NCBI GenBank assembly: GCA_902791945.1
Contig: CADAXR010000002.1
Span: 9 to 64,008 of the forward strand
Origin: an uncultured Bacteroidia bacterium
GTDB taxonomy: Bacteria; Bacteroidota; Bacteroidia; Bacteroidales; UBA932
DNA length: 64,000 nt
Direction: 5' to 3'
A model generated the notes under the pieces. That model was given only the letters and a program-made list of their open reading frames with translations, made no database searches and was not told the origin of the DNA. Every line of letters starts with the position of its first letter. Within the stretch, counting starts at the first letter, position 1. This document shows positions 2,031 to 20,378 of this stretch, one piece after another. Both the position numbers and the translations under genes were made by a program.

Positions 2031-2071
2031 TGCCGGTGAATGTTTGATTCATCCGCGAAGTTACGAAAAAG

Positions 2072-2959
2072 TCACGAATGAAATAGAATTTTTATCCACA
2101 CGGGGCAGTGATCGGAGGCTTTTGAGACTGCGGGGAGGTCTTCGGGGCTGATCCTGCCGGCCTCGAGGAGTTCCACATTTTCCTCACAGCCATTACGATA
2201 GATGAAGAAATAGTCGATGCAGCGGTCGGGTTCGTCCGACGGGTAGGTGAATTCGTCTCCGGTCAGCTGGATCCAGTTCTCACGGAACCTCGCGATTGTC
2301 TCCGAATCCGGCCTGGCGTTCATGTCGCCGGCAAGGAAAATGGGCTTGGCGACCGGCCTTGCGGCCGCCCAGGCGGTGATCTTGTCGACCGCACTCAGGC
2401 GGTCCGTCTCCGACGCGTGGTCAAGGTGGGTCTCGCAGAAAATGAAGGAGGGAAACTCAATGATCCCTACCGACCGCACCTCCTTGCCGTCGGTCTTTTC
2501 GAGCACTATCCTTTCGGGCTTTCCTCCGCGGCCAAGGACAGCCTTGTCCCAGACGATGGAGTTGCCATACCACTGATAGGCTGCAGGGAAGAAACTCGAG
2601 CCCCACTTCTTCCCGAGAGCCGAGGCCAGCTTCGAGGCCTGGTGGTCTCCGAATGTGCGCAGGCCTCCCCAGTCCGTCTCGTTGAGACCGACCACCGCCG
2701 GTCCCACCGTACGGATTATCTCAGCAATCTCGGGGTAGGAAAAGTGTCCGAGCTCGTCACGGTACTTGCGGAACGCCCCTGCGTTGTAGGACATAAGCGC
2801 CACGGTAAACTCCTCCGGCACGTCCGTCACGTCCGGCGCCGGCGGCGACAACGTCTCCGGCAAACCGGCCCACATCCCCGTCCCGCTCCCCGCAGACGCC
2901 TTTCCGTATCCCGCCACCACCAGCCCTATCATCAGGCAGTATTTCAGTATCCTTTTCAT
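2072..2959 (-). CDS. Secreted endonuclease/exonuclease/phosphatase (EEP) family protein
   Basis: 295 aa with an N-terminal signal peptide. EEP-like motifs are present: SYNAGAF, GLNETD, ETHLDH, GDMNARPDS, SDHCPVW. Confidence 0.75.
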   Translation of the reverse strand: MKRILKYCLMIGLVVAGYGKASAGSGTGMWAGLPETLSPPAPDVTDVPEEFTVALMSYNAGAFRKYRDELGHFSYPEIAEIIRTVGPAVVGLNETDWGGLRTFGDHQASKLASALGKKWGSSFFPAAYQWYGNSIVWDKAVLGRGGKPERIVLEKTDGKEVRSVGIIEFPSFIFCETHLDHASETDRLSAVDKITAWAAARPVAKPIFLAGDMNARPDSETIARFRENWIQLTGDEFTYPSDEPDRCIDYFFIYRNGCEENVELLEAGRISPEDLPAVSKASDHCPVWIKILFHS

Positions 2960-3020
2960 GGCATATCCTGATTATGTTCCTCATCCCAACAAAGATATAA
3001 AAAAATAATCTCCCCTCCCC

Positions 3021-3118
3021 GGGCAAGGTCTCCTTTTAGGTGGCGGACCTTGCCCGGGTTTCTCCGCTGGAGGCCGTTCTGGTGGACAAGGTCCCGACCC
3101 TAAAAGGAGACCTTGCCC
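3021..3118. repeat. 98-bp compound palindromic REP-like element (left copy)
   Basis: gggcaaggtctccttttagg ... cctaaaaggagaccttgccc, with inner inverted GGACCTTGCCC / GGACAAGGTCC motifs. An inverted near-copy lies at 4518..4615. Confidence 0.85.
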
Positions 3119-4026
3119 GGTTTCAGTATTTCCGAGACCTTCTGGCGGGGAAGTTCAAAGGTCCTTGCCAGTTGCGGAACTGTGGTTTTGCTTGTGTGAA
3201 AGACATACGGCAGGAGGCGGACCTTCTTCTCCAGTGGCAGAGAGGAAATATCTGACTCGAACCACCTGTTGCTCAGATCGTTGACGCTCTTGTAGAACTC
3301 TGAATCGGGCAACATCCTTCTCGGCTGGTCCACGAGTTTCTGCTTCATCTCTGCCGAATTCTGACCGCCAAGTATTTTCAGAAAGAAACTCTGCTCGTTT
3401 TCAAAAACCTGCTCCAGGTATGCGTTGTCACAAAAACTGCCCGGAACCAGGTGGTCCTGCCTGTCCAGAAGCCACTTGACCCCCGAAAGTTTGTTTCCGG
3501 TATGCATCAACTCCCTTTTCTCCCTTTTGGACAACTCAGCCACACTTCGGCATCCTTCCTCCGGCACCACAGTGTTGAACATCGCACCATACCCGGACCA
3601 CCGATATTCATTGATGTTGCATCCGTTATCCAAGGCGTTTCTAGGGATATACGCAAGTGCATTCCTGACATACCAGTTGCTGTCCAGAAGGAGTGCCTTG
3701 ACATCCACGTTCTGCATCGTCTCACGCGCCGAATACTTTTTGCTGAACCACATCGAATAGACTTTTTTGACTTCCTCACCATATTTGCCGGCATCCGTCT
3801 GGGTTTTCGCAAGAACGGCAACGTGACAGTGATTCGAAACCACGGCATATATGATTACGATGACATTTTTCCTGAGAGCTGCGACGGCAATGATCTTCAC
3901 CATCGCATCATAGTCGTCATCATCCCGGCAAAGAATACAGTCCTCCATCCCCTCAAGGCTTATGTGAAAAGGATAGACCATCGCGAAACTCCCGTCAGGG
4001 AGCCTCCTTCGCACCACTCTGTTCAT
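3100..4026 (-). CDS. IS200/IS605-type Y1 (HUH) transposase-like protein, REP-associated (RAYT-like)
   Basis: 308 aa. It has an HUH-like motif (SNHCHVAVLA) and a downstream YIPRNAL segment resembling the Y1 catalytic-Tyr region. The gene is bracketed by the two 98-bp palindromic elements. Confidence 0.6.
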   Translation of the reverse strand: MNRVVRRRLPDGSFAMVYPFHISLEGMEDCILCRDDDDYDAMVKIIAVAALRKNVIVIIYAVVSNHCHVAVLAKTQTDAGKYGEEVKKVYSMWFSKKYSARETMQNVDVKALLLDSNWYVRNALAYIPRNALDNGCNINEYRWSGYGAMFNTVVPEEGCRSVAELSKREKRELMHTGNKLSGVKWLLDRQDHLVPGSFCDNAYLEQVFENEQSFFLKILGGQNSAEMKQKLVDQPRRMLPDSEFYKSVNDLSNRWFESDISSLPLEKKVRLLPYVFHTSKTTVPQLARTFELPRQKVSEILKPGKVSF

Positions 4027-6973: not shown

Positions 6974-8488
6974 ATGCGTCGTATTTTTTTAGTTTGGGCC
7001 GCGGCCTTTGCCGCAGTAATGTTACCGGTGTCCGGTTGTGACGGGACGACCGTGGATAATACTGAAGTGGTTGATCCGGAAGGCGGCGAAACCGGTGGCG
7101 AAACCGGAGGAGAAACCGGCGGCGAAACCGGCGGCGAGACCGGCGGCGAGACCGGTGGAGAGACCGGTGGAGAAGGCGGTGGAGAAACAGGCGGCGAGGG
7201 CGGTGAGGTTATCCCGGTGACGGAGGTCAACCTTTTGACCGTGGCGGGTTCCTGCGGAATTTCCGTCCCGAGAAACGCTCCGAGGGGCACCTACTATATC
7301 GGCGTCGGGGCGGAGCAGAAATTCAGGGTTGAAGTGAAGCCCTCGGATGCTCCCCAGGAAGTGACGATTTACGAACAACTGCCCGGAGCGGGCAAAGTGC
7401 GTTTCAGCCTCGACGGCGACATCCTGACGGCGTCGGTGCCCGCAGGGACCGAGGCCTCGAGGGGAACCAACAAGAAAACTTCCACGGTGAAACTTAAGAC
7501 CGGTGACGGCAAGGTACATTCGTTTAATTTTATCAACTGCGTCTATGACCCGTACCAGCCGAAGTTCGGCGACGGCATCACCCCGGAGGGAAAGATTATC
7601 GACAGCGGCTTCCGTGGCGGGGATATCTTTGAAGACCCCGTCAACCTTGGCGGCAACGATGTCTCCTGCATCATCGCCTATCTCGGAGAGGAGCACATGA
7701 CGGAGGACCCCTTCTGGGAACTGTATTTCAAGCCTTCGACCGGCATACGGTCCGCAGGAAAGGCTATCCACGGCATCGCCATCCCCGCCAATGTCAGCAA
7801 ACTCTACCGCACTTCCGCGCCTGACGGGGAGTACTACTACACCGACAGCAGCGACGAAAATTTCATAACAGAGTCGAATAACCTTCCTTCATGGATTACC
7901 TCCAACGACGAGTGGAAGAGTCTGCTATATTTCAGGGGAAAGCACTCCGCCCTGCTGAACACGTGCTGCCACGTGTACTGCAATGCCGGCCGCGGCAAGA
8001 GCTTCGAAACCCTTCCTTTCCTGTTTTTCGTGGAGGATGCCCTGAAAAAGCCCAGTCTTAACGAAAGCAACGAGATGAAGGACAGTTCCTATGAGCAGTT
8101 CCACACCAGCTTCGACGCTGCCGGCAACGGACTTAATGCAAGGAGCGTTGACGGGGGATCCCTCACCGGCGAATACATGACGCCGTGGGTGCTTCCCACC
8201 GTCCATGATTTCAACTCCATCTTCATCGGTAAGGTGCCGGCCAATGTCGTGAACACCAATGACAGTCCGGACGTAGTCGAACGATGCAAGGTCTTTTCAA
8301 GGTCGACAAGAGTTCTCGGTGGTTCCGGGCAGACCTACGAAGGCATCAGATGGTGGCTCTCCAACGAGAATCCTTTTCAGCACGGACTCTGCCAGGGCAA
8401 CATCACACACAATGGAAATGTCTTTTCTGTGTACTATACCGTAGGACACACCACCAGGGCTTACGTCCTTCCGATAAGGTATTTCTAG
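6974..8488 (+). CDS. Surface lipoprotein with a (GGET)n linker and DUF1566-like C-terminal domain; paralog of 1..2030
   Basis: 504 aa. It has signal plus Cys (VSGC) and a GGETGGETGGET.. repeat. The shared block DPY..G.GI..EG..D.GFRGG..FEDP....IIAYLGEEHMTEDPFW is followed by WVLPT..F..IF / RWWLSNE / YVLPIRYF, which resembles the DUF1566 pattern. Confidence 0.6.
   Translation: MRRIFLVWAAAFAAVMLPVSGCDGTTVDNTEVVDPEGGETGGETGGETGGETGGETGGETGGETGGEGGGETGGEGGEVIPVTEVNLLTVAGSCGISVPRNAPRGTYYIGVGAEQKFRVEVKPSDAPQEVTIYEQLPGAGKVRFSLDGDILTASVPAGTEASRGTNKKTSTVKLKTGDGKVHSFNFINCVYDPYQPKFGDGITPEGKIIDSGFRGGDIFEDPVNLGGNDVSCIIAYLGEEHMTEDPFWELYFKPSTGIRSAGKAIHGIAIPANVSKLYRTSAPDGEYYYTDSSDENFITESNNLPSWITSNDEWKSLLYFRGKHSALLNTCCHVYCNAGRGKSFETLPFLFFVEDALKKPSLNESNEMKDSSYEQFHTSFDAAGNGLNARSVDGGSLTGEYMTPWVLPTVHDFNSIFIGKVPANVVNTNDSPDVVERCKVFSRSTRVLGGSGQTYEGIRWWLSNENPFQHGLCQGNITHNGNVFSVYYTVGHTTRAYVLPIRYF
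7082..7207 (+). repeat. In-frame 12-nt tandem repeat (about 10 units) encoding GGET/GGEG
   Basis: ggcggcgaaacc ggtggcgaaacc ggaggagaaacc ggcggcgaaacc ggcggcgagacc ... read directly from the sequence. Confidence 0.9.
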
Positions 8489-8587
8489 AGTTATTTCTCC
8501 TCGATCTTCAGCTCCTTTATCTCCCAGGTGGCCTGCGCGGCTGCTGGTCGAGACGTATATCTATCTATCCCTTATAGGCAAAAAAAA

Positions 8588-8607
8588 GACAGCACTAAGC
8601 TGTCTTT
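8588..8607 (+). terminator. Hairpin plus T-tract downstream of 6974..8488
   Basis: gacagc-actaa-gctgtc followed by ttt, and preceded by an A-run, so it could act in both directions. Confidence 0.45.
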
Positions 8608-8805
8608 CAGCGGAGAGAGCGAGAGTATTGCCTGTATCTTATCCATTCTCGTTTACGGGACAAATACTCGTTGTAGATGGTCACAACGGGGTTTTTGATT
8701 GATTAAGCGTTGCGCTGACATCAATGCGAAATCTTCAATTCCGCCATATTTCTCCTGACTCGGTGCGTCTTTTTTGAGATAAAAATACACCAAGTATTTC
8801 ATACC

Positions 8806-10449
8806 CTAAAAACCAATTCTCCTCCTACTGGTTCCGTTTCCTATAACCTCTTCAGAACAATAAGCGAGAATATCGTTAAAACCAGGCTCTGTTGAGTCGA
8901 TGATGGATTGAATCTCTCTTTTTCGGACAATGTTTTCGATCTGTCCTCCAGAAAAGTCGAAATCGTTGGCCAGAATCTTGACTTCAGCTTCTGAAAGGCT
9001 GGGCAGCATGGCCCTCCAGATGGATGCCCGGGCTTCTCTGGAAGGCTTTTCGAAGCATATCTTATAAAGGAATCGTCTCTCAAATGCCTTATCCAGATTG
9101 GTGGTCAAATTCGTGGTTGCAATGAGGATTCCGTCAAGGTCTTCCATCTCCTGCAGTATAATATTCTGGATGGAATTCTCCATCTTGTCAACAGCCTCTT
9201 CGGCTCCTTCCCGACGAATGCCGAAAATGGCGTCCGCCTCATTGAAAAGAAGAATTGGAATAGGTCCTCCGCCTTTTACGGCCTCACGGTATTTCTCGAA
9301 AACCTTCTTGATGTTCTTCTCACTTTCGCCAACCCAGCAACTCTTTATTTGAGAGACATCGACAATGTAGAGGTCCCTGCCACTTTCCCTGGCAATCTGG
9401 TATACCGTCTCGGTTTTGCCGGTACCAGGTCCGCCGTAGAATAAGCAGGAGAAACCAGTCCGAAGACCCTTATTCTTCATCTTCTCTCGGATTTCATTGA
9501 GGCGTTTTTCACTCATGAGCTCTTTCAGTTGTGCAACTTGCCGTTCTTCAGCCTGATTATAAAAAAGAGACTTTTCCGTGATATCTGTCGCTACAACTTT
9601 TTTTGAAGCAGATATTTTCTGGTCCTGTTTCTTGATGCCGCCCACATCGGCAAATATCTCTTCTTTCACATCGTCATTTAATTTGAAATAATCGCGTTCC
9701 ATAAAACTGTTCCTGCCGGCATATTCAAGGATTCCATCCTTTTGAAGTTTGAGGCGCTCCAGTTTATAGTCTGACCGGAGTCGGGCGAGGTCTTCATCAG
9801 AGAAATAATCTTCAAAATCGTGCCATCCAACCTTATCATCATCTTCGAAATAATATCGATAGATCATTCCATAGAGAACCGCTGTTTCCTTGGTAAGAAG
9901 CTCTTTGCTTATTCTTGTAATGGCCTTGGAAACGCTATTCTTGGGGTTTAACTCCATTAAATTGTTAAGGTCATCAACCATCTCACTAGTTGTGCATTGC
10001 TCTTCTTCCAACAAGTCAAGCCCCTTCTTTATGCGGACTAAAAGTGCCATTGCATCCAGACCTGTTGTCGGTTCTGGCTCCAGAGGCTTATTGTCGATTA
10101 GGGCGTTTAAAACCCTGCGAGGTATTGTTATTTCCCTTTTCTTGTCGATTCTGATATAGCCTATTGCCCGTAGGTCTTCCAGTTCCTTATTATAGCTTAG
10201 ATACTTAAGAAAACTAATTCCGAGAGACATAGCAAGCGCCTGTCCTGAAACTGAAGACGAAGATGTCTTGCGGGTAATTGCAGTAAGGAGCACCGTTTGT
10301 ATAGGGGAAAGTCCAAGCTCTTTCCCTAGGATGTCAATATCTGGAGCAGCCTTTTCCATAAGGTCAAAAGACATTCCGCTCCTCTGGTTCTCTTCGTCGT
10401 GCATTTTGTCTACAATGCTGCACATCCTGTCAATAATCGTCATTTCCAT
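8806..10449 (-). CDS. AAA+ ATPase (classic AAA family) with a long N-terminal non-ATPase region
   Basis: 547 aa. Walker A is FYGGPGTGKTE, Walker B is ILLFNEADAIF, and a second region of homology is ATTNLTTNLDKAFERRF. Confidence 0.8.
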   Translation of the reverse strand: MEMTIIDRMCSIVDKMHDEENQRSGMSFDLMEKAAPDIDILGKELGLSPIQTVLLTAITRKTSSSSVSGQALAMSLGISFLKYLSYNKELEDLRAIGYIRIDKKREITIPRRVLNALIDNKPLEPEPTTGLDAMALLVRIKKGLDLLEEEQCTTSEMVDDLNNLMELNPKNSVSKAITRISKELLTKETAVLYGMIYRYYFEDDDKVGWHDFEDYFSDEDLARLRSDYKLERLKLQKDGILEYAGRNSFMERDYFKLNDDVKEEIFADVGGIKKQDQKISASKKVVATDITEKSLFYNQAEERQVAQLKELMSEKRLNEIREKMKNKGLRTGFSCLFYGGPGTGKTETVYQIARESGRDLYIVDVSQIKSCWVGESEKNIKKVFEKYREAVKGGGPIPILLFNEADAIFGIRREGAEEAVDKMENSIQNIILQEMEDLDGILIATTNLTTNLDKAFERRFLYKICFEKPSREARASIWRAMLPSLSEAEVKILANDFDFSGGQIENIVRKREIQSIIDSTEPGFNDILAYCSEEVIGNGTSRRRIGF

Positions 10450-10551
10450 AATTGCTGTGTTTTTCTAGCGACAAAGGTAATTGAGGCTTCGGCAAGATTC
10501 CGACAAATGCACTTTTTCTACATTCTGCCATTATTCTGCCGAAGATATCGC

Positions 10552-10559
10552 TATCTTTG
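10552..10559 (+). promoter_or_regulatory. Candidate Bacteroidetes -7 promoter box (TATCTTTG) for the WYL operon
   Basis: Matches TAnnTTTG, 10 nt upstream of the ATG at 10569. No clear -33 TTTG. Confidence 0.3.
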
Positions 10560-10568
10560 TGGTCAGTT

Positions 10569-11486
10569 ATGGCAAAGAATTACTTCAAATCTTACATCTG
10601 GCTGCTGGAGACGCTCCAGAGCCGCGGGCCTCTTACGCTGGCCCAAATCAGGCAGTTGTGGCGGCGGAGTTCAGTAAATGAACTTGGAAGTGACCTTCCC
10701 GCGCGTACATTCGCGAATCATATAGAAGCAATCTCCGACATCTTCGGTATCGAGATTGTCTGCGACCGCAGGGACAACACCTACAGCATCGTCAACGAAG
10801 AAGATATGGACGGAACCGGTATCCGCTCCTGGATGCTGGATGCCCTCAGTCTCAACTCCCTCCTAAACGAGAGTGCCGGGATGAAGGACAGGATCTTCTT
10901 CGAGAATGTGCCTTCCAGCCATCAGTTCCTGACTACAGTCATCCAATCTATCCGTGACAACCGGAAGCTGAAGGTAAGCTATCAGGGCTACCGGATGGAC
11001 GAGGAACGGACCTTCGAGCTGGAGCCGTACTTTATCAGAGAATTCAAGCGTCGCTGGTATCTCTACGGCCATAAGGACTACGACAAGGACTTCAAGCCGC
11101 ACATGTACGCCCTGGACCGGATGCTGGAGGTAGAGATTCTTCCAGACACCTTCAAGGTCCCGGAAGGCTTAGATGCCAAGGCTTGGTTCCAGTCCCTGTA
11201 CGGCATACGCAAGTACGACGATATGAAGAGCCAGCAGGTCCTCCTGAAGGTCTACGGTAAACAGGTTCGCTACTTCCGCTCCCTGCCTCTGCACAGCAGC
11301 CAGGAAGAGATTGAGACGCACCGCGACCACAGCGTCTTTGCCTACAACCTCGCCCCGGACTATGACTTCAAGCAGGATATCCTCTCTTTTGGGGATTCGA
11401 TTGAGGTCCTGGAACCAAGAGAACTAAGAGTAGAGTTCTCTGAAAGAATCAATAAGATGATAACTAGATATATGAATAATGGCTAA
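10569..11486 (+). CDS. WYL-domain transcriptional regulator (wHTH-WYL-WCX architecture)
   Basis: The N-terminus is HTH-like (YIWLLETLQSRGPLTLAQI) and the WYL motif is RRWYLYGH. Start taken at the ATG (MAKNYF); the track start at 10557 is TTG. Confidence 0.8.
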   Translation: MAKNYFKSYIWLLETLQSRGPLTLAQIRQLWRRSSVNELGSDLPARTFANHIEAISDIFGIEIVCDRRDNTYSIVNEEDMDGTGIRSWMLDALSLNSLLNESAGMKDRIFFENVPSSHQFLTTVIQSIRDNRKLKVSYQGYRMDEERTFELEPYFIREFKRRWYLYGHKDYDKDFKPHMYALDRMLEVEILPDTFKVPEGLDAKAWFQSLYGIRKYDDMKSQQVLLKVYGKQVRYFRSLPLHSSQEEIETHRDHSVFAYNLAPDYDFKQDILSFGDSIEVLEPRELRVEFSERINKMITRYMNNG

Positions 11487-12147
11487 AGAAATTAAGGATA
11501 GAATTGTCGAGGTCCTGGATAGGACATTCAGGGTATTAGACAAGTGTTACGAGTATAACGATGAGAAATCGGGTAAGGCAAACATACAGGCAAGTGGCAG
11601 CCGCATCATTTTCCCTTGTTATAGCAAAACCTACCGCAACGGTGAGCGTCGCATCAGCGAACAAGAGCTGAGGTTCGTGTTCATTGAACAGTTTAACCAA
11701 TACTGCGAAGAGACAGGCTGGGATGCATACTATTCTGTCGAGACTCCTACGGAATGGGAATACCGTTTTTCAGGAGAGGAGAAGCCTCACAAAACTGATA
11801 GTGATGAAGGTCAATCTGCAATGGTAGATGTGTGTGTCCATGACAATCAGGGAGAACGGATTTGCCTTCTCGAATTCAAGGCTGGAAATCCTGAACCATT
11901 CTGTTATATCAAGGACCTTGTTAAACTAACGGAAGAAGGTAAACTGGGTTTCTTTGTTCAGCTTCTGAAAAGCCAGAATAAAGCCACCTGGGAAAGCATC
12001 AAGGGGAAGATTAGTGCCGACCTTAAAGGGAACAACTATGTCTGCCATACTTTTGGCCCTCAAAAGTATCATGGGACGCAATATATCTCAAATAGTGAGA
12101 TAATAATTGACGGGTGGGAACGGAGGGAAATATCAATTGATAACTAA
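11479..12147 (+). CDS. PD-(D/E)xK nuclease-fold protein (predicted)
   Basis: 222 aa. The signature is E63 ... D117 (MVDV) ... E132-F-K134 (LLEFK). The start overlaps the WYL stop by 8 nt. Confidence 0.45.
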   Translation: MAKEIKDRIVEVLDRTFRVLDKCYEYNDEKSGKANIQASGSRIIFPCYSKTYRNGERRISEQELRFVFIEQFNQYCEETGWDAYYSVETPTEWEYRFSGEEKPHKTDSDEGQSAMVDVCVHDNQGERICLLEFKAGNPEPFCYIKDLVKLTEEGKLGFFVQLLKSQNKATWESIKGKISADLKGNNYVCHTFGPQKYHGTQYISNSEIIIDGWERREISIDN

Positions 12148-12160
12148 TACACTTATAATT

Positions 12161-12892
12161 ATGGCACAAATTGGATATGGATATGGTAGTGAGTTCCAGC
12201 TTCTTAGATTCCTGGGACATCATCGGCATGAGTTTGAAGAAATAATCTCCAAACAAATTGGGGGAGGTGTCTTTGAATGGGAGGACTTTGAATTTGCAAA
12301 TCCGAAAAATGTTATTTCCGAGGATAAGGAAATAACAGGTCTGGAGTTCTTAAAAAGATTGTATCCCTCGCAATATGAGTCTATTGAAGCTGAGTACAAA
12401 AAATACATTAGAAAGAAGGACTGGCAGAACTGGGATGCAGTATTCACTCAAAATGGAACTCTTTTCTTAGTAGAAGCGAAGGCTCATATCAGTGAATTGT
12501 CATCAGGGAAAGAAGAGCATGGTGATAGCTCAAAGGAATCCATCCTTGACTATTTTAAAGCTCAGTTGCCAAGCCTTCCTGTTAACAGAGTATGGCTTCA
12601 AGATTATTATCAACTAGCTAATAGACTTGCGACGGCAGCTTTGTTGAACAAACATGGTATAAAAACCAAAGTGCTGTACATATACTTCGTAAATGGCTAT
12701 CGAAAGCGCGTCCTAGAGAAGAAGGGTCGAGCCGAAATACTATTTGAAACGGTGAATCTCAATGCATCAGAAGTAGATTTTAGGGCTGCAATCGCAGAAG
12801 AGATGCAAACACTCGGAATCACTCATGACGAAGTTTCTGATTTGTTGGCTCCTCCAGTATTTGTAAATGCGGAACCTGTTGCATATAAGTAA
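12161..12892 (+). CDS. Second PD-(D/E)xK-like protein (predicted)
   Basis: 243 aa from ATG 12161 (MAQIGYGYGSEF). It has GSEFQLL, then D92 (WDAVF) and E105-A-K107 (LVEAK). Confidence 0.4.
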   Translation: MAQIGYGYGSEFQLLRFLGHHRHEFEEIISKQIGGGVFEWEDFEFANPKNVISEDKEITGLEFLKRLYPSQYESIEAEYKKYIRKKDWQNWDAVFTQNGTLFLVEAKAHISELSSGKEEHGDSSKESILDYFKAQLPSLPVNRVWLQDYYQLANRLATAALLNKHGIKTKVLYIYFVNGYRKRVLEKKGRAEILFETVNLNASEVDFRAAIAEEMQTLGITHDEVSDLLAPPVFVNAEPVAYK

Positions 12893-13439
12893 TAAACCAG
12901 TTTATGCGTTCTCCGACACCCACGGCAACCATCGCCGCCTGAAGGTGCCGGTGGATGCAGAGATTATTATCTGTGCCGGTGATGCTGTGGAGGATGATCT
13001 TAAGGGCAGCGAGTATGACGATTTCATCTCTTGGTTCGGGGCGCTTCCAGCCAAATGGAAACTCTTTGTCCCCGGTAATCACGAATTATCTTTCAGCAGA
13101 AACCGATATAAAACAATCGTAGAGCAGTTTGAGGCGGCCGGCATCATAGTCCTTCAAGATGCAGTAGAGGACTGCGGCGGAGTTGTCATCGGCTCAATTT
13201 CCAAAGACGCCAGGATTGCCGATGAAGACATCCCGAATGACATCGACATACTGGTTACGCACTGGCCTCCTTACGGCATTCTGGACAATGAGCTGGGTTC
13301 TCTGGACATTCTGAACTTCGTCCTGAAGGCCCAGCCCAAGTGGCATCTCTTCGGCCACATCCACGAAACTGAAGGGCAGCAATTCCAGCTGGGCAGAACA
13401 ATCTGCCAAAATATTTCCGTTTTTAACGCTATTTCTTAG
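12867..13439 (+). CDS. Calcineurin-like metallophosphoesterase
   Basis: 190 aa. Motifs are SDTHGNH, AGDAVED, PGNHE, VTHWPP and FGHIHE. It overlaps the upstream gene by 26 nt. Confidence 0.8.
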   Translation: MRNLLHISNKPVYAFSDTHGNHRRLKVPVDAEIIICAGDAVEDDLKGSEYDDFISWFGALPAKWKLFVPGNHELSFSRNRYKTIVEQFEAAGIIVLQDAVEDCGGVVIGSISKDARIADEDIPNDIDILVTHWPPYGILDNELGSLDILNFVLKAQPKWHLFGHIHETEGQQFQLGRTICQNISVFNAIS

Positions 13440-13493
13440 CATCTGCCGAATTTCTGCCGAAGGTCCGGTTATTTTTGCCGAAAAAAGTTAGAA

Positions 13494-13955
13494 ATGGCAG
13501 AAATAATCAATCAGATCCCCGGTTACGAAAAAGGTCGTCTCCAGCGCATTACCGCTACTGACGAAGTGAGCGAATCCTTCATCGTCGCCCAGATGGCCGC
13601 CGACCTGCGCAAGAAGTGGAATACCTCCGTCCTTTGCATCTCCCTGGACGGCCATAAGGAAGCTATCGAATCCCTGATACCTCAGGAGAATGCGGTCGGC
13701 AGGATTTATGTCCTTGACCAGAAGAATCCCGAATTTGATGTGGTCTATCGCAAGGCTACAGGCATCATCAACCGCCGCTTCGTTCGCGCCCTCATCATCA
13801 GTGGCGCAGAGCGCCTCGCCACCAGAACCTTCAAAGACAAGCCGGAGAAGGGTCGGGAGTGGATTGACAATCGTCTGAGCGGCCTCTCGGGAGGCATTGG
13901 TCTTCCCGTCATCCTCGTGGAAGTCCACGAAGAATCAGTTGAACTACAATCCTAA
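13494..13955 (+). CDS. Hypothetical protein
   Basis: 153-aa ORF on the same strand as its neighbours. No motif recognised. Confidence 0.4.
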   Translation: MAEIINQIPGYEKGRLQRITATDEVSESFIVAQMAADLRKKWNTSVLCISLDGHKEAIESLIPQENAVGRIYVLDQKNPEFDVVYRKATGIINRRFVRALIISGAERLATRTFKDKPEKGREWIDNRLSGLSGGIGLPVILVEVHEESVELQS

Positions 13956-13969: not shown

Positions 13970-14470
13970 ATGAAACGAACAATTCTATTCGTGATGCTGG
14001 CCATTGCTGGCATCCAGGGCTATGCCCAGAACACCAACCCGCTGAACTATAGCGGCCGTATGTATGTCGAAGCTATTGAGATCTACGCTACACCTCGCTA
14101 CATCTCCTATGAGGACCACGCCATCCTTTCACAGCAGATGCGCATCCCTTCTGTCCAGATAACCAAGTGTGAAATGGACTTTGAGAAGGGCACCGTCACT
14201 GTCGATAACAAGGAGATGCGCATCAAGGTCAATGCCACCAAGAAGTACGACACCGATCGTGGCTGGGTTGTGGTCATCTACACGGATCTTGTCGATGAGG
14301 GCGATAAGGCAGAGCTGGTCTGGCCAGAATTCGGCAAACCCTACTTCCAGCAGATTACCAAGGCTGATAATGGAGTCAATATCGCCAGAATGGTCCTCAC
14401 CAGCAAGCCTTATGTTGCCGATGAAGGAGAGGCGTTGATGAACCTGCTGCAGGGGCTCGGGACAATGTAG
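13970..14470 (+). CDS. Secreted protein of unknown function
   Basis: 166 aa with signal peptide MKRTILFVMLAIAGIQGYAQ. Confidence 0.5.
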   Translation: MKRTILFVMLAIAGIQGYAQNTNPLNYSGRMYVEAIEIYATPRYISYEDHAILSQQMRIPSVQITKCEMDFEKGTVTVDNKEMRIKVNATKKYDTDRGWVVVIYTDLVDEGDKAELVWPEFGKPYFQQITKADNGVNIARMVLTSKPYVADEGEALMNLLQGLGTM

Positions 14471-14910
14471 GCCGTTGCCTATGATTCACGTCGGTTGTGA
14501 TACCTACGCCTCTATGATTGTCCGCGCCATTGAAGGCGATGACGCGGACAAAATAAAAATCGTAACTTTGTAATGCGTTGGGCTCGTAATCTGACCACAT
14601 ACTGATTCTCGCACCCGGAGAGATTGATTCGGTCCGCCTGCTGGTTGGCCTCTGAAGGAAGAAAAATCGCAACTTTTAGTATGTGTATTTTGCCCTTCAA
14701 AAAATTGATAATTGTAAGCCAAAAAGCATTATAACTTAGTTTAAATTTGTTATAATTTTATACAATAAATTATTGAATATAATATATTAAATATCAATAG
14801 GTTAGTGTAGAAAATTCCACTCGAAAAGTTTGGAGAGTTCGAGAATTCTTGCGTACCTTTGCCACCGGTACCATAAGGGCGCTCAAGTTCAATTATTAGA
14901 AACAAGTTTT

Positions 14911-15765
14911 ATGAAGAATTATGCATCACTAATTGAGCATCTCAATCTGTTTGATGAGAATCTAACGAAGATGATTGAAAGCAATCGTCTCCTGCATCCC
15001 GAACAACGGGAAGAGTATGCAAACAAAATTGCCGAATGCTTCATCCCTTGTGCTAAGAAGATCTTGGCTGGTTGTTTCTTGGTAAAGAATCTTAAGGGTG
15101 GCGAACAAGTAGTCCGGAAGATTAATCCCACTGTACTGGAGTTGTATTATCATGAAGAAGATCCTGGGCGTTTCAAGGATCCAATCATGTATCACACGAA
15201 TGATCGGAAGTACTATGATTATTATCTTGATGCGAATGGGAAGGAAAAGAGCCATGGACCTCAAAGCCAATCTTTTTTCAAGAAAAGAGGGATTGATGGC
15301 TTGCCTTATTACCCGATAGGTAGTTTAAATCCACACACTTCCGGAATCGATATTACTTTCGAGAACTCTGAAAAGCATTATCGAGCTTCTTGTCTGATTC
15401 GGGAATATGATATCCTTTTTGCCGAAGGAAAAGAGCCTGTTCACATTAAGAACTCTACTGACATTTACGATGATTTGCTTCTTTATGGCATCACTCTGGA
15501 CAATGCCGATTGGATTGATTGGGAGCCGGGTGATTGTCTTGATTCCGTGAGTGACAAGGACTTTAAGGAGAAGCATTCTTGTGGCAGAAGAAATGTCCCA
15601 GATTATATTCCCTCAGATGTGGTAATCGAAGGATGTCCCGTTCTTTGGAAGAAGAATGATCATCCAGACGGAGAGCCTGCTTTTGCGGGGCCTAATAAAA
15701 AAGTCTACAAGAAGTGCCCTTTCAATTGGCAATTCCACAAGGCTGAGATTCCTCCAAAGAAGTAA
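14911..15765 (+). CDS. Hypothetical protein; weak motif-level resemblance to alkyladenine DNA glycosylase (AAG/Mpg) family
   Basis: Start taken at ATG 14911 (MKNYASL). ILAGCFLVK and LELYYHEED recall the LLG..LVK and ETEAY segments of AAG-family enzymes, and CLIREYD recalls the (V)LIRA.EP segment. This is recalled from memory, not searched. Confidence 0.3.
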   Translation: MKNYASLIEHLNLFDENLTKMIESNRLLHPEQREEYANKIAECFIPCAKKILAGCFLVKNLKGGEQVVRKINPTVLELYYHEEDPGRFKDPIMYHTNDRKYYDYYLDANGKEKSHGPQSQSFFKKRGIDGLPYYPIGSLNPHTSGIDITFENSEKHYRASCLIREYDILFAEGKEPVHIKNSTDIYDDLLLYGITLDNADWIDWEPGDCLDSVSDKDFKEKHSCGRRNVPDYIPSDVVIEGCPVLWKKNDHPDGEPAFAGPNKKVYKKCPFNWQFHKAEIPPKK

Positions 15766-15770
15766 TCCCC

Positions 15771-16631
15771 ATGATACCCGAAACACGTAGCAACAGAGTA
15801 TTTTACTCTGCCAAGTGGCCGGAGGCTTGCCCTAAATCGTACCGTTCTGTTACCGGCATCCTGGACAAATATGGCGTTCCGCATGCTGCTTTAAGTAGCA
15901 CCAAGGACATCTGGGTCCGTGATTTCATGCCCATTCAAGTGTCTCCTGGGTGGTTCAAGTTCTATCACTACATGCCGGATTACCTCAGGGAGGATAAACA
16001 ATACGAACGGCGGATCAGTGATCCTGCAGAAGTGTGCCGGGCTAATGGAATCCACGCGGACGATGGAATCAGCGGAATTTGCATCGATGGAGGAAATGTT
16101 GTTCACGGTGGCCTGAAGGTTATCATGACGGCAAAGGTGTTCGAGGAGAATCCGAAGACAACAGTGCATGACCTCTCCCGTCTCCTGGAGATGCATTTCG
16201 GCGCCAGTCTTATCATCCTTCCCTGGGACACAAACGAGATGTATGGCCATGCCGATGGTATCGTACGCTTTGTGGATGATGACACCGTCATAATGACGAA
16301 CTATCACCAGTTCGATCCCAAGATGGCGGCAAGGTTCCGGAACATCCTGAAGGCCCACTTCAAGGTGGTACACGAACTCAACTACAATGTCGAGCATCTC
16401 TCCGAAAACAGCTGGGCCTATATCAACTGGCTCCAGACAGACAAAGTCATTATCCTTCCGTCCTTCGGCATACCAGAGGACGAGCAGGCATTCCGGCAAA
16501 TAGAGCGCTGGATGCCTGAATACCGCGGCCGAATTGAAATGACCGATGCGACAGATTTGATCCAGGGCGGAGGCTGCTTCAATTGCGCCACCTGGACCAT
16601 AGATAACACCAAAACTCAATTAATCCCTTAG
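15771..16631 (+). CDS. Guanidino-group modifying enzyme, PAD_porph/agmatine-deiminase-like
   Basis: 286 aa. Motifs are DIWVRDFMP, IDGGNVV and GHADGIVRF, plus a C-terminal GGGCFNCATW corresponding to the catalytic-Cys motif (GGG.HC.T). Confidence 0.65.
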   Translation: MIPETRSNRVFYSAKWPEACPKSYRSVTGILDKYGVPHAALSSTKDIWVRDFMPIQVSPGWFKFYHYMPDYLREDKQYERRISDPAEVCRANGIHADDGISGICIDGGNVVHGGLKVIMTAKVFEENPKTTVHDLSRLLEMHFGASLIILPWDTNEMYGHADGIVRFVDDDTVIMTNYHQFDPKMAARFRNILKAHFKVVHELNYNVEHLSENSWAYINWLQTDKVIILPSFGIPEDEQAFRQIERWMPEYRGRIEMTDATDLIQGGGCFNCATWTIDNTKTQLIP

Positions 16632-16635
16632 CAAT

Positions 16636-18513
16636 ATGTCAATCGTTATCAATAACAACATGGAAGTCGATGGAATAGTACTCGACTCCACCAACTACGA
16701 ATTCATGCAGGCACTGGCCATCGCTCAGTCCACGGATAAAAACCTCTATCTGACAGGCAAAGCAGGCTCCGGAAAAACCGTCTTCCTCAAATACCTCAAG
16801 AAGGTGTGCAGGAAAGAGATGGTTATCCTCGCTCCTACGGGCGTGGCCGCCATCAATGCCGGAGGCCAAACCATCCACTCTTTCTTCGGCCTGGCACCGT
16901 CCATTTATGTCCCCAACGATAGACGGTTCTCAGACTTCATCAAGGCTGAGGACATCGAAAAGGCCAGCGTCCTGGACAACTATCATTTCAGTGGCGAGAA
17001 AGCGCAGATGATCTGCCACCTGGATATGATCATCATCGACGAGGTCTCCATGGTTCGTGCCGATTTGATGGATGCCATCGATATGCTGCTCCGGATGTAC
17101 CGCCGGAATAACCTCCCATTCGGCGGCGTCCAGATGCTATTCATTGGCGATGCCTTCCAGATTCCTCCTGTAGTCGAGAAAAAAGACAGTGGGCTGCTCT
17201 ATCAGTTCTATCAGAGCGAACACTTCTTCAATGCCCGCGTTCTACGGGCCAATCCGCCACTCTACCTGGAGCTGAAGAAGATCTATCGTCAGAAGGACCA
17301 GGCGTTCATTGAACTGCTCAACCGCGTAAGGGTGAACGATATGCGAATGAAGGACTACCAGCTGCTGAACTCCCGCTACCAGCCGAAATTCCGTCCCGAA
17401 GATAGAGACCGCTATATCTTGCTGGCCACAACCAACAAAAAAGTGCTTGCCTACAACAACAATCGGCTGTTCGAACTACCCGGCGAAGAGAAAGTATACG
17501 TAGCCGATGTCGAAGGCGATTTCTCTCCAAAGGATAGCCCGGCTGAAGTTGAGCTTCACCTAAAAGAGGGCGCACAGGTGATGTTTGTCAAGAACAACTG
17601 GGATAAGGAATATTACAATGGACAAATCGGCCGCATTGCTGCAATGGACAGCCAGCAGATTATTGTTGAAGTTGAGGATGCAGACGGCGATACCAGAATC
17701 ATCAACGTGGCCCGTGAAATCTGGGAAAAGGTGGAATATGTTTGGGACGATGAGGAGGAGTGTGTGAAGGAGACAACCGTCGGTAGTTTCATGCAGTTCC
17801 CGCTCAAACTTGCCTGGGCTATCACGGTCCACAAGAGCCAAGGGCTCACCTTTGAGAAAGTGATAGCCGATATCGGCGATTCCTTTGCGGCCGGTCAGGC
17901 ATACGTCGCCCTCAGTCGATGCACCTCTCTCGAAGGGCTTGTCTTGATCAGTCCTGTCACGCCGATGAGTATCCGCACAGACCGCTACGTCGTTGAATTC
18001 TCCAAAACGGAGAGTCCAGAAGATGACATCATCGAAGAGATATCTTCCGCGGACGAAAACGACCTCCCTAATGTAGAAACGGTTGATGTCCTTGTCAACG
18101 TGTTGCGCTCTCTGGATGAAGAGAGATTCAAATTTGAAACAGACGATAGCGCTTATTCCCTCATTAAGATTCCGGCCGATCTGGATGGTTACTTCGTCGT
18201 TGGCATCACCAACATGTTCTACGACCCGGACGACGTTGATGGATTTGGATCTTTTGAAATCCATCATAAGGAGACAGGAAGGACACTCACGTTCTATTAC
18301 CCGTATCCGGATGAGGATCAAGTAGTGTTCGGAGAGAATATGTACACCTTCATCTCAGAGCCCATCCCCATGAAGGACATCCTGGGTGAAGACTATGTCT
18401 ATGACAAGTCCAAAGAAGATTCTATCACCATAACCATTTGTCACAACCTGAAGGAGAAATATCAGGACATCCACGCCATCTGCAGTATAGCTGAAGCACT
18501 GGGAAAGGAATGA
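16636..18513 (+). CDS. PIF1/RecD-family (SF1B) DNA helicase with ~150-aa C-terminal extension
   Basis: 625 aa. Motifs are GKAGSGKT, ILAPTGVAAINAGGQTIHSFF, IIIDEVSM, FIGDAFQIPPV, TVHKSQGLTF and YVALSRC. Confidence 0.85.
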   Translation: MSIVINNNMEVDGIVLDSTNYEFMQALAIAQSTDKNLYLTGKAGSGKTVFLKYLKKVCRKEMVILAPTGVAAINAGGQTIHSFFGLAPSIYVPNDRRFSDFIKAEDIEKASVLDNYHFSGEKAQMICHLDMIIIDEVSMVRADLMDAIDMLLRMYRRNNLPFGGVQMLFIGDAFQIPPVVEKKDSGLLYQFYQSEHFFNARVLRANPPLYLELKKIYRQKDQAFIELLNRVRVNDMRMKDYQLLNSRYQPKFRPEDRDRYILLATTNKKVLAYNNNRLFELPGEEKVYVADVEGDFSPKDSPAEVELHLKEGAQVMFVKNNWDKEYYNGQIGRIAAMDSQQIIVEVEDADGDTRIINVAREIWEKVEYVWDDEEECVKETTVGSFMQFPLKLAWAITVHKSQGLTFEKVIADIGDSFAAGQAYVALSRCTSLEGLVLISPVTPMSIRTDRYVVEFSKTESPEDDIIEEISSADENDLPNVETVDVLVNVLRSLDEERFKFETDDSAYSLIKIPADLDGYFVVGITNMFYDPDDVDGFGSFEIHHKETGRTLTFYYPYPDEDQVVFGENMYTFISEPIPMKDILGEDYVYDKSKEDSITITICHNLKEKYQDIHAICSIAEALGKE

Positions 18514-18693
18514 TTTGATAGGCCTGGGATAAAGCCGATAAGTTGTTAACATTTCAACACTTTCAACAGGCGCTTTTCAACAAGCATAACTTGCCTATAA
18601 TCAAGGCAGTAAGAACTTATGAAATAGTTCTAAACAATGCTTGGGATTGGCTTTTCCCGGGCCTATATTTGCCCTTGAGAAACACTAAATAAC

Positions 18694-20199
18694 ATGGCTA
18701 AAAATACACGAAAAGGAGCCGCATCCATCGATGCGGTTCAGATGGCATCGGCCGAAATCGGCCATAAGCCGCCCCAGGCACCGGAGGCAGAAGAAGCAGT
18801 TATCGGTGCGATGATGCTCTATGAGGAGTGCTTATACCAAGCGGTAGGTTCTCTCAAAGAGAAGAGCTTCTACAACCCCAAACTCCGGCCCATCTTTGCA
18901 GCCATCTCTTGGCTCTTTAACCATCGAAGCGCAGTTGACATCACAACCGTGGCCGATAGATTGCGGACCGATGGCACCCTGGAAGAGATAGGTGGTCCGA
19001 CCACGCTGGCCAACCTTACGCAGAATGTAGGATCTGCAGCCAACATGGAGTACTATGTGAAGATCCTGCAGCAGAAGACCATCCAGCGAGACCTCATTGA
19101 GGCCGGGTATGGCATCCTCCGGAAAGCCTTTGATGAGACCTATGAAGTGGACAAACTCATCGAAGAGTCCCAGACGGAAGTCTACAATGCAGTTCAGGGC
19201 AATATGCGTAGTGAATATGTCGATATTGGCAACGCATTGAACAGAGCCCTCGACCGTCTCCAATTTGTTCAGAGAACAAAGGGGCTTACCGGTGTTCCTT
19301 CCGGATTCCCGTCCTTGGATGAAATCACCCGCGGATGGCAGGATGGAAACCTAATTGTCATTGGCGCCCGTCCAGGACACGGGAAGAGTGCTATCGCCTT
19401 GAATATGGCAAGCGCTGCAGCAATTGATCACAATATTCCAACAGCATTCTTCACCCTTGAGATGGCCGATATTGAATTAGCAGACCGCCTGATTGGTATG
19501 GAATCCGGCCTGTCCTCCGGGAAGAGAAAAGGTAGGGACAAGATGGAGGATTATGAGTGGGAACTGCTTGAGAAAGCCCTTAGGGAGGCTGCCAAGGCCC
19601 CACTATATATCGATGAGACTCCTGGACTTACCATCATGGAATTCATGTCCAAAATCAAGCGAATGGTTCAGGAGAAAGGAATCAAGATTGCGTTCGTCGA
19701 CTATTTGCAGTTGATGCACGCTACTGCTGCATTGGCCCAGTATCGCGCTCTGGAGATAGGTGAAATCTCCAGGCAGCTGAAGGAAACTGCCAAAGAACTG
19801 CATATTCCTATCATAGCTCTGGCACAGCTTAATCGAAACTTGATGTCCCGTCAAGGCTCATCAAATGGGCGGCCTGTTTTGAGCGACCTGAGGGATTCCG
19901 GCTCCATTGAGCAGGATGCAGATATGGTCCTGTTCATCCACCGTCCTGCACTCCTGGGCTTGAGCGAGGATGGCATTGATCGGGCCGAGTTGATTATCGC
20001 CAAGAATAGAGCCGGAGAGATGGGTATCATTCCGCTTCGGTTCAATGGTGACCAGGTGAGATTCAAGGAAGACACAGGGGCGCTTTCGGATTATGCTTCT
20101 GCAGTACCAGTAGAATCAGCGATGAATTCTTATGATATTACGCCAAGGCCATCAGAAGGATATTCGCCATTCGACCACTTTGAATCTGGGGATTTGTAG
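18694..20199 (+). CDS. dnaB: Replicative DNA helicase DnaB
   Basis: 501 aa. Motifs are EAEEAVIGAMML, GFPSLDEIT.G...G.LIVIGARPGHGKSA, FFTLEM and SGSIEQDADMV. Confidence 0.9.
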   Translation: MAKNTRKGAASIDAVQMASAEIGHKPPQAPEAEEAVIGAMMLYEECLYQAVGSLKEKSFYNPKLRPIFAAISWLFNHRSAVDITTVADRLRTDGTLEEIGGPTTLANLTQNVGSAANMEYYVKILQQKTIQRDLIEAGYGILRKAFDETYEVDKLIEESQTEVYNAVQGNMRSEYVDIGNALNRALDRLQFVQRTKGLTGVPSGFPSLDEITRGWQDGNLIVIGARPGHGKSAIALNMASAAAIDHNIPTAFFTLEMADIELADRLIGMESGLSSGKRKGRDKMEDYEWELLEKALREAAKAPLYIDETPGLTIMEFMSKIKRMVQEKGIKIAFVDYLQLMHATAALAQYRALEIGEISRQLKETAKELHIPIIALAQLNRNLMSRQGSSNGRPVLSDLRDSGSIEQDADMVLFIHRPALLGLSEDGIDRAELIIAKNRAGEMGIIPLRFNGDQVRFKEDTGALSDYASAVPVESAMNSYDITPRPSEGYSPFDHFESGDL

Positions 20200-20328
20200 G
20201 CAGTTGCTGTACCGATATCAGAAAGATATAGGCCGATGGATCCAGCGGCAGTGCCGATGAGAGGGATGATTAAGTTAGAATTACCCCTCGGTGCAATTTT
20301 GGTGCAACTTTTTTTGACCAAAACACAA

Positions 20329-20364
20329 GAAAAACCCCTTCTGATGCGTTCAGAAGGGGTTTTT
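20329..20364. terminator. Bidirectional intrinsic terminator
   Basis: A 9-bp stem ccccttctg/cagaagggg (20335-43 / 20351-59) is flanked by an A-run and a T-run. It lies between dnaB and tRNA-Ser. Confidence 0.7.
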
Positions 20365-20378
20365 GGTGAAAAATAAAG

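Follow-up and report, generated by a model that had tools for sequence, protein, structure and literature searches.

A candidate WYL-regulated locus with exchangeable nuclease-like genes in the Bacteroidales

Introduction

WYL-domain repressors such as BrxR and CapW are known to gate phage defense (PMC9122601, PMC9122589, PMC13622015). Other WYL-domain regulators serve the response to DNA damage: SiwR controls adjacent genes under genotoxic stress (PMC10693628), while in the Moraxellaceae a single WYL regulator, DdaA, activates both the damage response and defense (PMC12392091). Here, we analyze a WYL regulator gene and its neighbors in a 64,000-nucleotide (nt) stretch of DNA, hereafter the window, from an uncultured Bacteroidales bacterium of the UBA932 lineage (GenBank assembly GCA_902791945.1, contig CADAXR010000002.1, positions 9 to 64,008 of the forward strand). 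To our knowledge, almost all work so far on WYL switches that tie phage defense to DNA damage sensing concerns Proteobacteria and Actinobacteria. The locus offers the Bacteroidales, a dominant gut and rumen order, a concrete predicted operator and a conserved regulator/AAA+ pair.

An earlier note on this DNA had proposed an uncharacterized defense locus, in which an AAA+ ATPase gene is divergent from an operon of a WYL regulator, two nuclease-like proteins, and a metallophosphoesterase. Our analysis points to a somewhat different arrangement, in which a conserved regulatory frame holds nuclease-like genes that are exchanged between relatives. We propose that it is a repressor-gated, horizontally exchangeable locus of frame and cassettes that is mainly defensive (against phages or other mobile genetic elements) and whose induction is shared with the damage response, a reading that we hold with no more than even confidence.

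Results

All five open reading frames (ORFs) of the locus, their strands, and the divergent orientation of the AAA+ gene were as the earlier note had drawn them (Table 1); the two small proteins are referred to here as A and B and the metallophosphoesterase as MPE. The 8-nt overlap of WYL with A and the 26-nt overlap of B with MPE also agreed with the ORF list, and A and B are indeed separated by a short gap, although of 13 nt and not 14 nt. Since the ORFs from WYL to MPE either overlap or lie no more than 13 nt apart, with no strong internal terminators, the four genes are suggested to form one transcript. The block had been described as AT rich, and its G+C content is in fact 45.4%, against 53.1% for the window, which ranks it among the lowest 2% of windows of its size. 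By gene, G+C content is low in AAA+ (44%), A (43%), and B (40%) and near the window average in WYL (52%) and MPE (50%).

The expectation that the five genes would be conserved together did not hold. We clustered the neighbors of A in the best 80 loci and scored partners within 5 kb in 79 species-level loci, none of which carried all five genes (0/79); genes in the fetched loci were called crudely as longest ORFs, so that neighbor counts are approximate, and many contigs are truncated, so that absences are under-determined. Counted within 5 kb, A was accompanied by WYL in 23 of the 79 loci, by MPE also in 23 (directly adjacent in 11), by AAA+ in 4, and by B in 3. The main partner of A, a beta-CASP metallo-beta-lactamase (Lactamase_B_2 plus RMMBL; 31/79), is absent from the window, and in 34 of the 79 loci no recurrent partner, of five considered, lay within 5 kb. 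B can form a pair with WYL, and it lacks a constant partner across most of 80 metagenome loci; AAA+ adjoins a B homolog in L147 and L148 (related loci are designated by L and a number). Outside the window, the full five-gene arrangement was found only on four metagenome contigs, which are 97 to 100% identical to the window and thus represent the same population.

Loci with close relatives of the WYL, MPE, and AAA+ genes show what is kept and what is swapped. In L134, L143, and L192, WYL and MPE are 90 to 93% and 77 to 90% identical to those of the window, while the B-like gene between them is only 35 to 42% identical. The same exchange is seen in L161, with p153, a gene that follows MPE in the window, in place of MPE. 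In the closest species (L024), AAA+ (88% identity), MPE (87%), p153 (90%), and the next gene, p166 (80%), are all close to those of the window; WYL is 52% and A 69% identical, and an unrelated protein with an ExK motif (family c33) replaces B. A REase-ARP-like gene stands in the B position in L023, and L025 has both A and B, lacks MPE, and shows ClpP in the divergent position in place of AAA+. Nearly identical frames thus carry different nucleases between WYL and MPE, which speaks against the reading of the locus as a single five-gene system. From the genes kept and swapped in these relatives, we take the divergent gene (usually AAA+), WYL, usually MPE, and p153-p166 to be the frame, and the stand-alone PD-(D/E)xK genes between WYL and MPE to be cassettes, apparently swapped among at least five unrelated families. 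The lower G+C content of A and B compared to WYL and MPE is in line with their behaving as exchangeable cassettes.

The region shared by the divergent AAA+ and WYL genes, which had been proposed to hold their promoters, is 119 nt long and contains two divergent Bacteroidetes-type -7 boxes with a conserved palindromic operator between them. The -7 boxes were read by eye, and a sigma-70 promoter scan was not used, as Bacteroidetes promoters differ; TAnnTTTG is the -7 consensus of Bacteroides promoters. The outer arms of the predicted operator (10487-10494 and 10537-10544; inverted repeat I3) are complementary at 8/8 positions. Its architecture is kept upstream of most WYL orthologs of 50 to 93% protein identity, and the exact pattern was found in 7 loci, only at the operator position. 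The WYL -7 box is likewise kept as TAnnTTTG in orthologous upstream regions, and L134 and L025, each with a different divergent gene, retain the AAA+ promoter block GCGACAAAGGTA. In L015 and L100, the -7 box is fused to a TGCCGAA/TGCCGGA half-site (TATCTTTGCCGAA).

A second predicted site, composed of three direct TGCCGAA half-sites, is situated in the intergenic region that separates MPE from p153. Clusters of TGCCGAA occur twice in the 64 kb, both times at promoters of the WYL locus, compared to a mean of 0.075 in shuffled sequence. The two-site layout recurs in L023, L024, L025, and L026, and the site upstream of p153, or of its equivalent, is also found in L192 and L195. The earlier note missed p153 and p166, which have this predicted operator site of their own; since it lies at the p153 promoter, the regulated unit would extend past 13439, where the locus had been taken to end, to p153-p166 (~14470). 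We infer that WYL sits on the predicted operators and controls both sites, and because half-sites overlap or abut -7 boxes, repression is favored as its mode of action.

Both A and B are probably active nucleases of the PD-(D/E)xK type, as predicted from structural models and alignments. The residues earlier picked out in A (E63, D117, E132, and K134) are present and invariant in 59 aligned homologs, as are E11, D92, E105, and K107, which make up the signature of B. The AlphaFold model of A has a mean predicted local distance difference test score (pLDDT) of 94 and the order α(E63)-β-β(D117)-β(E132xK134)-α-β, with E63 in helix 61-79, D117 in strand 112-121, and E132 and K134 in strand 127-135. 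In the model of B (pLDDT 91), E11 lies in helix 10-20, D92 opens strand 93-97, and E105 and K107 lie in strand 100-107. In models and alignments, A and B thus each combine the core fold with the conserved E…D…ExK. Along with the invariant residues and the predicted topology, the best, though weak, fold matches agree with the earlier nuclease-like assignment. For A, the best PDB matches (Foldseek) were the DrdV nuclease domain (E of 0.074, probability of 0.84, TM of 0.28 to 0.40), Ecl18kI, N.BspD6I, and AddAB, and the top matches in BFVD (E of 1.6e-3) were phage Cas4-type, DUF2726, and restriction-enzyme proteins. B best matched McrC (E of 1.5e-3, probability of 0.82), but with a TM of ~0.2 and a root mean square deviation of 17 Å, followed by DdmD, AF1548, AddA/RecB, and HincII. 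We take these matches as consistent with a nuclease fold and not as proof of it. Two members of the A family have sub-threshold Pfam matches, to HSDR_N_2 and SduA_C, that coincide with the catalytic core; when profiles of A and B were compared with PDB sequences, only noise was returned. We also considered whether A and B are paralogs and rejected this, as hhalign found no detectable profile similarity between them (probability of 0.1).

Neither A nor B matches a family in Pfam, NCBIfam, PHROGs, or PADLOC. Homolog searches recovered 726 homologs of A and 327 of B, and since each family has hundreds of conserved homologs, we consider the observation more than chance. The A profile retrieves 1,093 clusters at 50% identity; every one of the top 150 is a stand-alone protein, ~200 to 250 amino acids (aa) long. 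The family is found mainly in the Bacteroidales, and a genome scan placed it in 118 species, nearly all from rumen or gut. The B family is broadly distributed (335 metagenome loci from many habitats), and its distant members often adjoin Eco57I-type restriction-modification, Dcm plus DUF4268, OLD-family ATPase, and AddAB-like genes, as well as ResIII helicase and helicase-nuclease genes, among them a giant helicase-REase. Among 2.9 million viral contigs, we found one match to A and eight weak matches to B.

Three further observations concern A. No domain fusion was found among the top 150 of the 1,093 clusters, and the sole fusion was to a sigma-70 region-2 fragment (protein P0432, in which the fragment is joined to the N terminus of the A domain), which may be a merge in gene calling. 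A truncated protein of sigma-70 region 2 only (family c22, ~121 aa) adjoins A in 3 of the 4 loci that have it (L029, L030, and L031). Meanwhile, the Segatella copri group and relatives (L032 to L035, L028, and L039; locus position ~8000-11300) carry A in a different conserved operon without a WYL gene, in the order 166-aa protein (weak PolIIIα-palm match), 148-aa protein, 425-aa beta-CASP metallo-beta-lactamase, A, phosphoesterase, and 111-aa DUF4160-like protein. This operon has no PADLOC match and may be a separate candidate multigene system.

The WYL protein contains the RRWYLYGH motif on which it was first recognized and has a predicted helix-turn-helix (HTH)-WYL-WCX architecture. Pfam places WYL at residues 120 to 190 (6.1e-13) and WCX at 222 to 297 (3.6e-10), both above the gathering score, and PADLOC identifies WYL at 1e-30. 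Residues 1 to 115 match no Pfam HTH model at an E of <0.1 and are conserved among orthologs; the first 74 aa also occur in family c13 (35% identity). Two WYL paralogs each are found in L194 and L100.

The AAA+ protein (Pfam AAA, 1.5e-24) joins a classic-clade module at residues ~320 to 520 to an unannotated N-terminal region of ~300 aa. It has a Walker A motif (GPGTGKT), a variant Walker B motif (hhhNEAD), and arginine fingers (DxAxxRRF), and its closest solved structures are Cdc48/p97/VAT, NSF, and Vps4. NEAD (about residues 390 to 400), in which Asn stands in for the Walker B Asp of the usual hhhDE, was found in 120/120 AAA+ homologs and in five distant ones and so is family wide. The protein also matches PADLOC IetA (8.9e-32, AAA half only) and NCBIfam IteA_antiphage (1.7e-27), with only residues 319 to 521 aligning to the latter. 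In each context examined, AAA+ orthologs (64 to 68% identity) have a WYL gene as divergent or immediate neighbor, with different cargo each time, and one such WYL/AAA+ locus is carried on an element with a relaxase, an integrase, and ParA. In addition, an RtcB RNA ligase gene, often with a gene for an RF-1-domain (PrfH-like) protein, lies a few genes from A or beside AAA+/WYL in L041, L047, L057, L068, L100, and L194, a recurrence that hints at a link to RNA repair.

All five metal-binding motifs that had been claimed for the MPE are present in its translation (DTHG, GDAVED, GNHE, THW, and GHIHE), and Pfam Metallophos matches at 4.4e-13 (50.5 bits against a cutoff of 21.5). In PADLOC, the MPE is matched over profile positions 12-202/223 by the candidate PDC-S10 (1.6e-39, 133.5 bits), a model with no curated cutoff. 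MPPED2 is its closest solved structure (4.5e-16), and its subfamily appears to be MPPED2-like, resembling nucleotide phosphodiesterases, and not Mre11/SbcD-like.

Conserved beside WYL loci in L023, L024, L025, L061, L112, L134, and L192 to L196, p153 gave a weak and nonsignificant profile match to the DnaB helicase C domain across the P-loop region (E of 0.11). Its fold is possibly RecA/DnaB-C-like and lacks a Walker A motif. p166 is usually codirectional with p153, is 75 to 89% identical in L023, L024, L025, and L192, and has no family match in Pfam, PADLOC, NCBIfam, or PHROGs.

The flanks of the locus have been rearranged in places. Window positions 14471-20267 are absent in L024 and L192, where p166 is directly followed by sequence homologous to window positions 20267-20392. 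Because of this absence, the segment appears to be an insertion or rearrangement beside the tRNA-Ser gene that it adjoins. It begins with an intergenic stretch of 37% G+C content and carries genes for a 311-aa protein, a PAD_porph/agmatine-deiminase-like protein, a PIF1 helicase, and a full-length DnaB; no convincing att-like direct repeats flank it. On the other side, the AAA+ gene is convergent with an unrelated gene, whose 504-aa product has a signal-peptide-like N terminus, a (GETG)n repeat, and no family match. Its ortholog in L024 (95% identical) lies on the opposite side of the locus, indicating a local rearrangement.

Elsewhere in the window, a diversity-generating retroelement includes a reverse transcriptase ORF (Pfam RVT_1, with a generic reverse transcriptase match only in PADLOC) and a template-like repeat paired with a variable copy, 75% identical to it, at the 3′ end of another ORF; on the reverse strand, almost all differences between the repeats fall at adenines of the template copy. 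Two more ORFs encode a borderline IS200-like protein (Pfam Y1_Tnp, 23.5 bits against a cutoff of 23) and a thymidylate synthase family protein (Pfam, 2e-20) that is shorter than the model (profile positions 1-227/266).

Table 1. Positions in the window of the genes and predicted sites of the locus and of other features
Feature	Position	Strand	Description
AAA+ ATPase	8806-10449	-	547 aa; ORF list, Pfam
-7 box of AAA+ gene	10472-10479	-	TACCTTTG on reverse strand; 22 nt upstream of ATG; read from sequence
Predicted split palindromic operator	10487-10544		CTTCGGCA-N7-GGCA...TGCC-N7-TGCCGAAG; between the two divergent promoters
-7 box of WYL operon	10552-10559	+	TATCTTTG; 9 nt upstream of ATG, 7 nt past right operator arm
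WYL regulator	10569-11486	+	305 aa from ATG; first operon gene
A	11479-12147	+	222 aa
B	12161-12892	+	243 aa
MPE	12867-13439	+	190 aa
Second predicted site	13444-13482	+	half-sites at 13444, 13455, and 13476
-7 box of p153	13470-13477	+	TATTTTTG; overlapped by third half-site; 16 nt upstream of p153 ATG
p153	13494-13955	+	153 aa; unannotated, conserved frame member
p166	13970-14470	+	166 aa; signal-peptide-like N-terminal segment; last gene of conserved frame
IS200-like ORF (borderline)	3100-4026	-	308 aa
ORF convergent with AAA+ gene	6974-8488	+	504 aa
tRNA-Ser	20378-20466	-
Thymidylate synthase family protein	20841-21479	-	212 aa
Diversity-generating retroelement	25039-28151	-
Reverse transcriptase ORF	25039-26406
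Template-like repeat	26329-26424		96 nt
ORF with variable copy	27018-28151		377 aa
Variable copy of repeat	27033-27128

Discussion

If the locus is a repressor-gated defense frame, then in the resting state a WYL dimer would occlude the promoters and keep AAA+, its own operon (A, B, and MPE), and p153-p166 repressed. A nucleic acid ligand on the WYL domain would lift repression; by analogy with DriD, PafBC, and SiwR, this ligand might be single-stranded DNA or something similar that arises from DNA damage or when phages replicate. Once induced, A and B would cut invading or abnormal DNA, each probably on its own, while the MPE may process nucleotide or nucleic acid phosphate ends and the Cdc48-like AAA+ protein may act as an unfoldase or remodeler of some target. 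We consider defense the most likely main function, based on the swapping of cassettes, the PDC-S10 match, the neighborhoods of B homologs, the one locus on a mobile element, and the precedent of BrxR and CapW.

Several results weigh against this reading. The closest solved sequences to WYL are the damage response activators PafBC (3.7e-6) and DriD (~1e-4), and neither BrxR nor CapW is among its solved-sequence matches at an E of <0.01. Apart from MPE (PDC-S10) and half of AAA+ (IetA), no gene of the locus matches PADLOC, nor do the recurrent partners seen in other loci (the beta-CASP metallo-beta-lactamase; families c4, c5, c8, c9, c33, c44, and c50; and the REase-ARP-like and PolIIIα-like proteins). 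Foldseek returned no match to A or B at an E of <1e-3 in PDB or BFVD, and TM values were 0.2 to 0.35 (0.28 to 0.40 for DrdV). MPPED2-type enzymes use nucleotides, not DNA ends, as substrates. Both the operator and the repressor role of WYL are predicted from conservation and position only. Finally, related frames carry umuD-umuC, PHP-PolIIIα with a DnaQ-like exonuclease, a PLD nuclease, RecQ, and RtcB/PrfH, genes that fit repair or damage tolerance as well as they fit defense. The near absence of A and B from viral contigs we grade as neutral.

Because relatives carry umuDC, PolIIIα-like, RecQ, and RtcB genes in the same frame, a damage response is a serious rival, which we judge less likely than defense. 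Under this explanation, the locus would be a DNA/RNA damage module in which WYL, as a Bacteroidales counterpart of PafBC, DriD, DdaA, or SiwR, senses single-stranded DNA and switches on repair or tolerance; A, B, and MPE would serve in repair or end processing, and AAA+ (ClpP in relatives) would clear damaged or stalled complexes. In L192 (positions 1-3079, reverse strand), WYL (91% identity), a B-like gene, and MPE (88%) are followed by a UmuD-like S24 peptidase and the N terminus of a UmuC-type polymerase. In L020 to L023, the operon divergent from WYL encodes a PHP-PolIIIα-like protein (787 aa in L020/L023), an RNase_T (DEDDh) exonuclease, a PLD nuclease, and RecQ; downstream lie DnaB_C-like genes and fragments of PolIIIα genes. 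RtcB and an RF-1/PrfH-like gene, which recur both in A loci and next to AAA+/WYL, point the same way, as does the closeness of WYL to the solved PafBC and DriD sequences, and DdaA and SiwR provide precedents (PMC12392091, PMC10693628). On the other hand, repair genes are normally conserved single-copy orthologs, while here nucleases of low G+C content are swapped, across unrelated families, within a near-identical frame. The overlap of half-sites with -7 boxes suggests repression, whereas the known damage response WYL factors are activators; the operator occurs only at the WYL locus within the 64 kb; and B homologs elsewhere lie in restriction and defense neighborhoods. We also count against this explanation that umuDC-like genes are common cargo of mobile elements. 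The two functions do not exclude one another; DdaA activates both networks (PMC12392091).

A combined function is indeed conceivable, if doubtful. The locus could belong to a hitherto undescribed WYL-based nucleic acid stress circuit of rumen and gut Bacteroidales, in which a TGCCGAA-type operator and a divergent Cdc48-like NEAD AAA+ protein couple one signal of damage or infection to a rapidly exchangeable arsenal, forming a combined SOS-like and immune regulon. The arsenal would include at least five PD-(D/E)xK families without annotation, the beta-CASP nuclease, the MPPED2-like phosphoesterase, umuDC, the PHP-PolIIIα-like protein with exonuclease and RecQ, and RtcB/PrfH. Such a circuit would be analogous to that of DdaA but organized as a repressor-gated cassette hotspot, with the A family (more than 1,000 clusters at 50% identity) as its new core nuclease.

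It seems improbable that, as the earlier note implied, AAA+, A, B, and MPE form a single integrated defense machine, one effector complex under WYL. Translational coupling (8 nt for WYL/A and 26 nt for B/MPE), the promoter region shared with AAA+, and the pairing of AAA+ with a B homolog in L147/L148 would fit such a complex, and A is adjacent to MPE in 11/79 loci and within 5 kb of it in 23/79. The same 79 A loci, however, include none with all five genes, B in only 3, and AAA+ in only 4; the main A partner, the beta-CASP metallo-beta-lactamase, is missing from the window; and B occurs with WYL alone or, in most of 80 metagenome loci, without a conserved partner. The identical five-gene order on four independent metagenome contigs loses its force given that these contigs are 97 to 100% identical to the window and represent one population.

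We regard as similarly remote that the locus is a set of unconnected accessory genes gathered at a recombination hotspot close to tRNA-Ser, with WYL controlling itself and perhaps AAA+ and the small ORFs being non-nuclease or decayed. The relocated 504-aa gene, the segment missing between p166 and tRNA-Ser-proximal sequence in L024 and L192, the nearby IS200-like transposase and diversity-generating retroelement, and the 34/79 A loci with no recurrent partner (of five) within 5 kb would fit, but the second operator site is kept across relatives, the closely spaced or overlapping ORFs without strong internal terminators suggest one transcript, and the catalytic residues do not vary among the 59 diverse members aligned per family, which argues against decay of A and B. 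A prophage module was rejected because of the scarcity of viral-contig matches to A and B.

Whichever function prevails, nucleases swapped inside a fixed regulatory frame represent a natural experiment, and two sizeable families without Pfam, NCBIfam, PHROGs, or PADLOC annotation have intact nuclease-type active sites. Should the cassettes prove protective against phages, the frame could be used as bait for new defense genes of the Bacteroidales, which are poorly catalogued at present; as a damage regulon, the locus would instead supply a missing piece of the genotoxic stress response of this order.

Comparison with known systems

The earlier note recognized no named system in this combination of genes, and for the combination we likewise found no description in the literature. 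The claim does not extend to the MPE, which matches PDC-S10, a candidate for which our literature search turned up a list entry only. This candidate and the partial IetA match are the only matches to known defense at the locus (PADLOC).

Among the described loci closest to this one are those of BrxR and CapW (PMC9122601, PMC9122589, PMC13622015), which share the predicted HTH-WYL-WCX architecture, a regulator encoded first in the operon, variable cargo, and in some cases carriage on mobile elements. They also share an inverted-repeat operator at their own promoter together with a second box inside the island, BrxR having two boxes (PMC9122601). In contrast, the genes downstream of WYL here do not form a recognized defense system, and the WYL protein is not matched by solved BrxR or CapW at an E of <0.01. 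The operators differ as well: the predicted one is a split palindrome with ~42 nt between its outer arms, compared to an 11-bp inverted repeat with a 5-bp spacer in BrxR/CapW-type loci. For BrxR loci, no AAA+ partner in divergent orientation has been described, and repression by the WYL protein here is a prediction from sequence.

PafBC, DriD, SiwR, and DdaA (PMC9186387, PMC10853764, PMC10693628, PMC12392091) have the same domain architecture as predicted for this WYL protein and include the solved sequences closest to it. The likeness extends to gene content, as umuDC, polymerase, RecQ, and exonuclease genes are found in loci related to this one; SiwR similarly controls adjacent genes only, and DdaA couples damage with defense. 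These factors activate transcription from positions upstream of the core promoter, whereas the half-sites here overlap -7 boxes. Compared to the PafBC and DdaA regulons, only two sites were found in 64 kb, the sequence covered being the window and loci of ≤21 kb, and cargo is swapped between close relatives.

Individual genes also resemble parts of other systems. PDC-S10 is an unvalidated single-gene candidate, while the MPE here belongs to a WYL operon and overlaps the nuclease-like gene upstream. Compared to MPPED2 and class III cyclic-nucleotide phosphodiesterase-like enzymes, which include its best solved match and with which it shares the five metal-binding motifs, the MPE is a shorter protein (190 aa versus 296 aa for MPPED2) of bacterial origin in an operon with nuclease-like genes. 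The AAA module aligns to IetA models, but IetAS was rejected, as the score of 96.6 bits is well below the equivalog cutoff of 510 and covers the ATPase half only, with no IetS; a Pfam search of positions 5 to 17 kb found no protease domain that would represent an IetS-like protease. The AAA+ protein further differs from IetA in its N-terminal region of ~300 aa and in its Walker B motif NEAD. McrBC was also rejected: no McrB-like gene is present, and the AAA+ protein is Cdc48/Vps4-like and an inconstant partner of B. With McrC, the DrdV nuclease domain, Shedu SduA, and type II/IV restriction endonucleases, A and B share the order of the core fold and E…D…ExK. They differ from these defense nucleases in being small single-domain proteins without a significant match to any one family, and the locus has no McrB GTPase, methyltransferase, or specificity partner.

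Altogether, this is not a described locus of the BREX or CBASS type. The regulatory logic of WYL-regulated islands is already known; what is new is the Bacteroidales setting, the specific predicted operator, the AAA+ partner with its NEAD motif, two unannotated nuclease-like families, and the apparent exchange of cassettes within a fixed frame.

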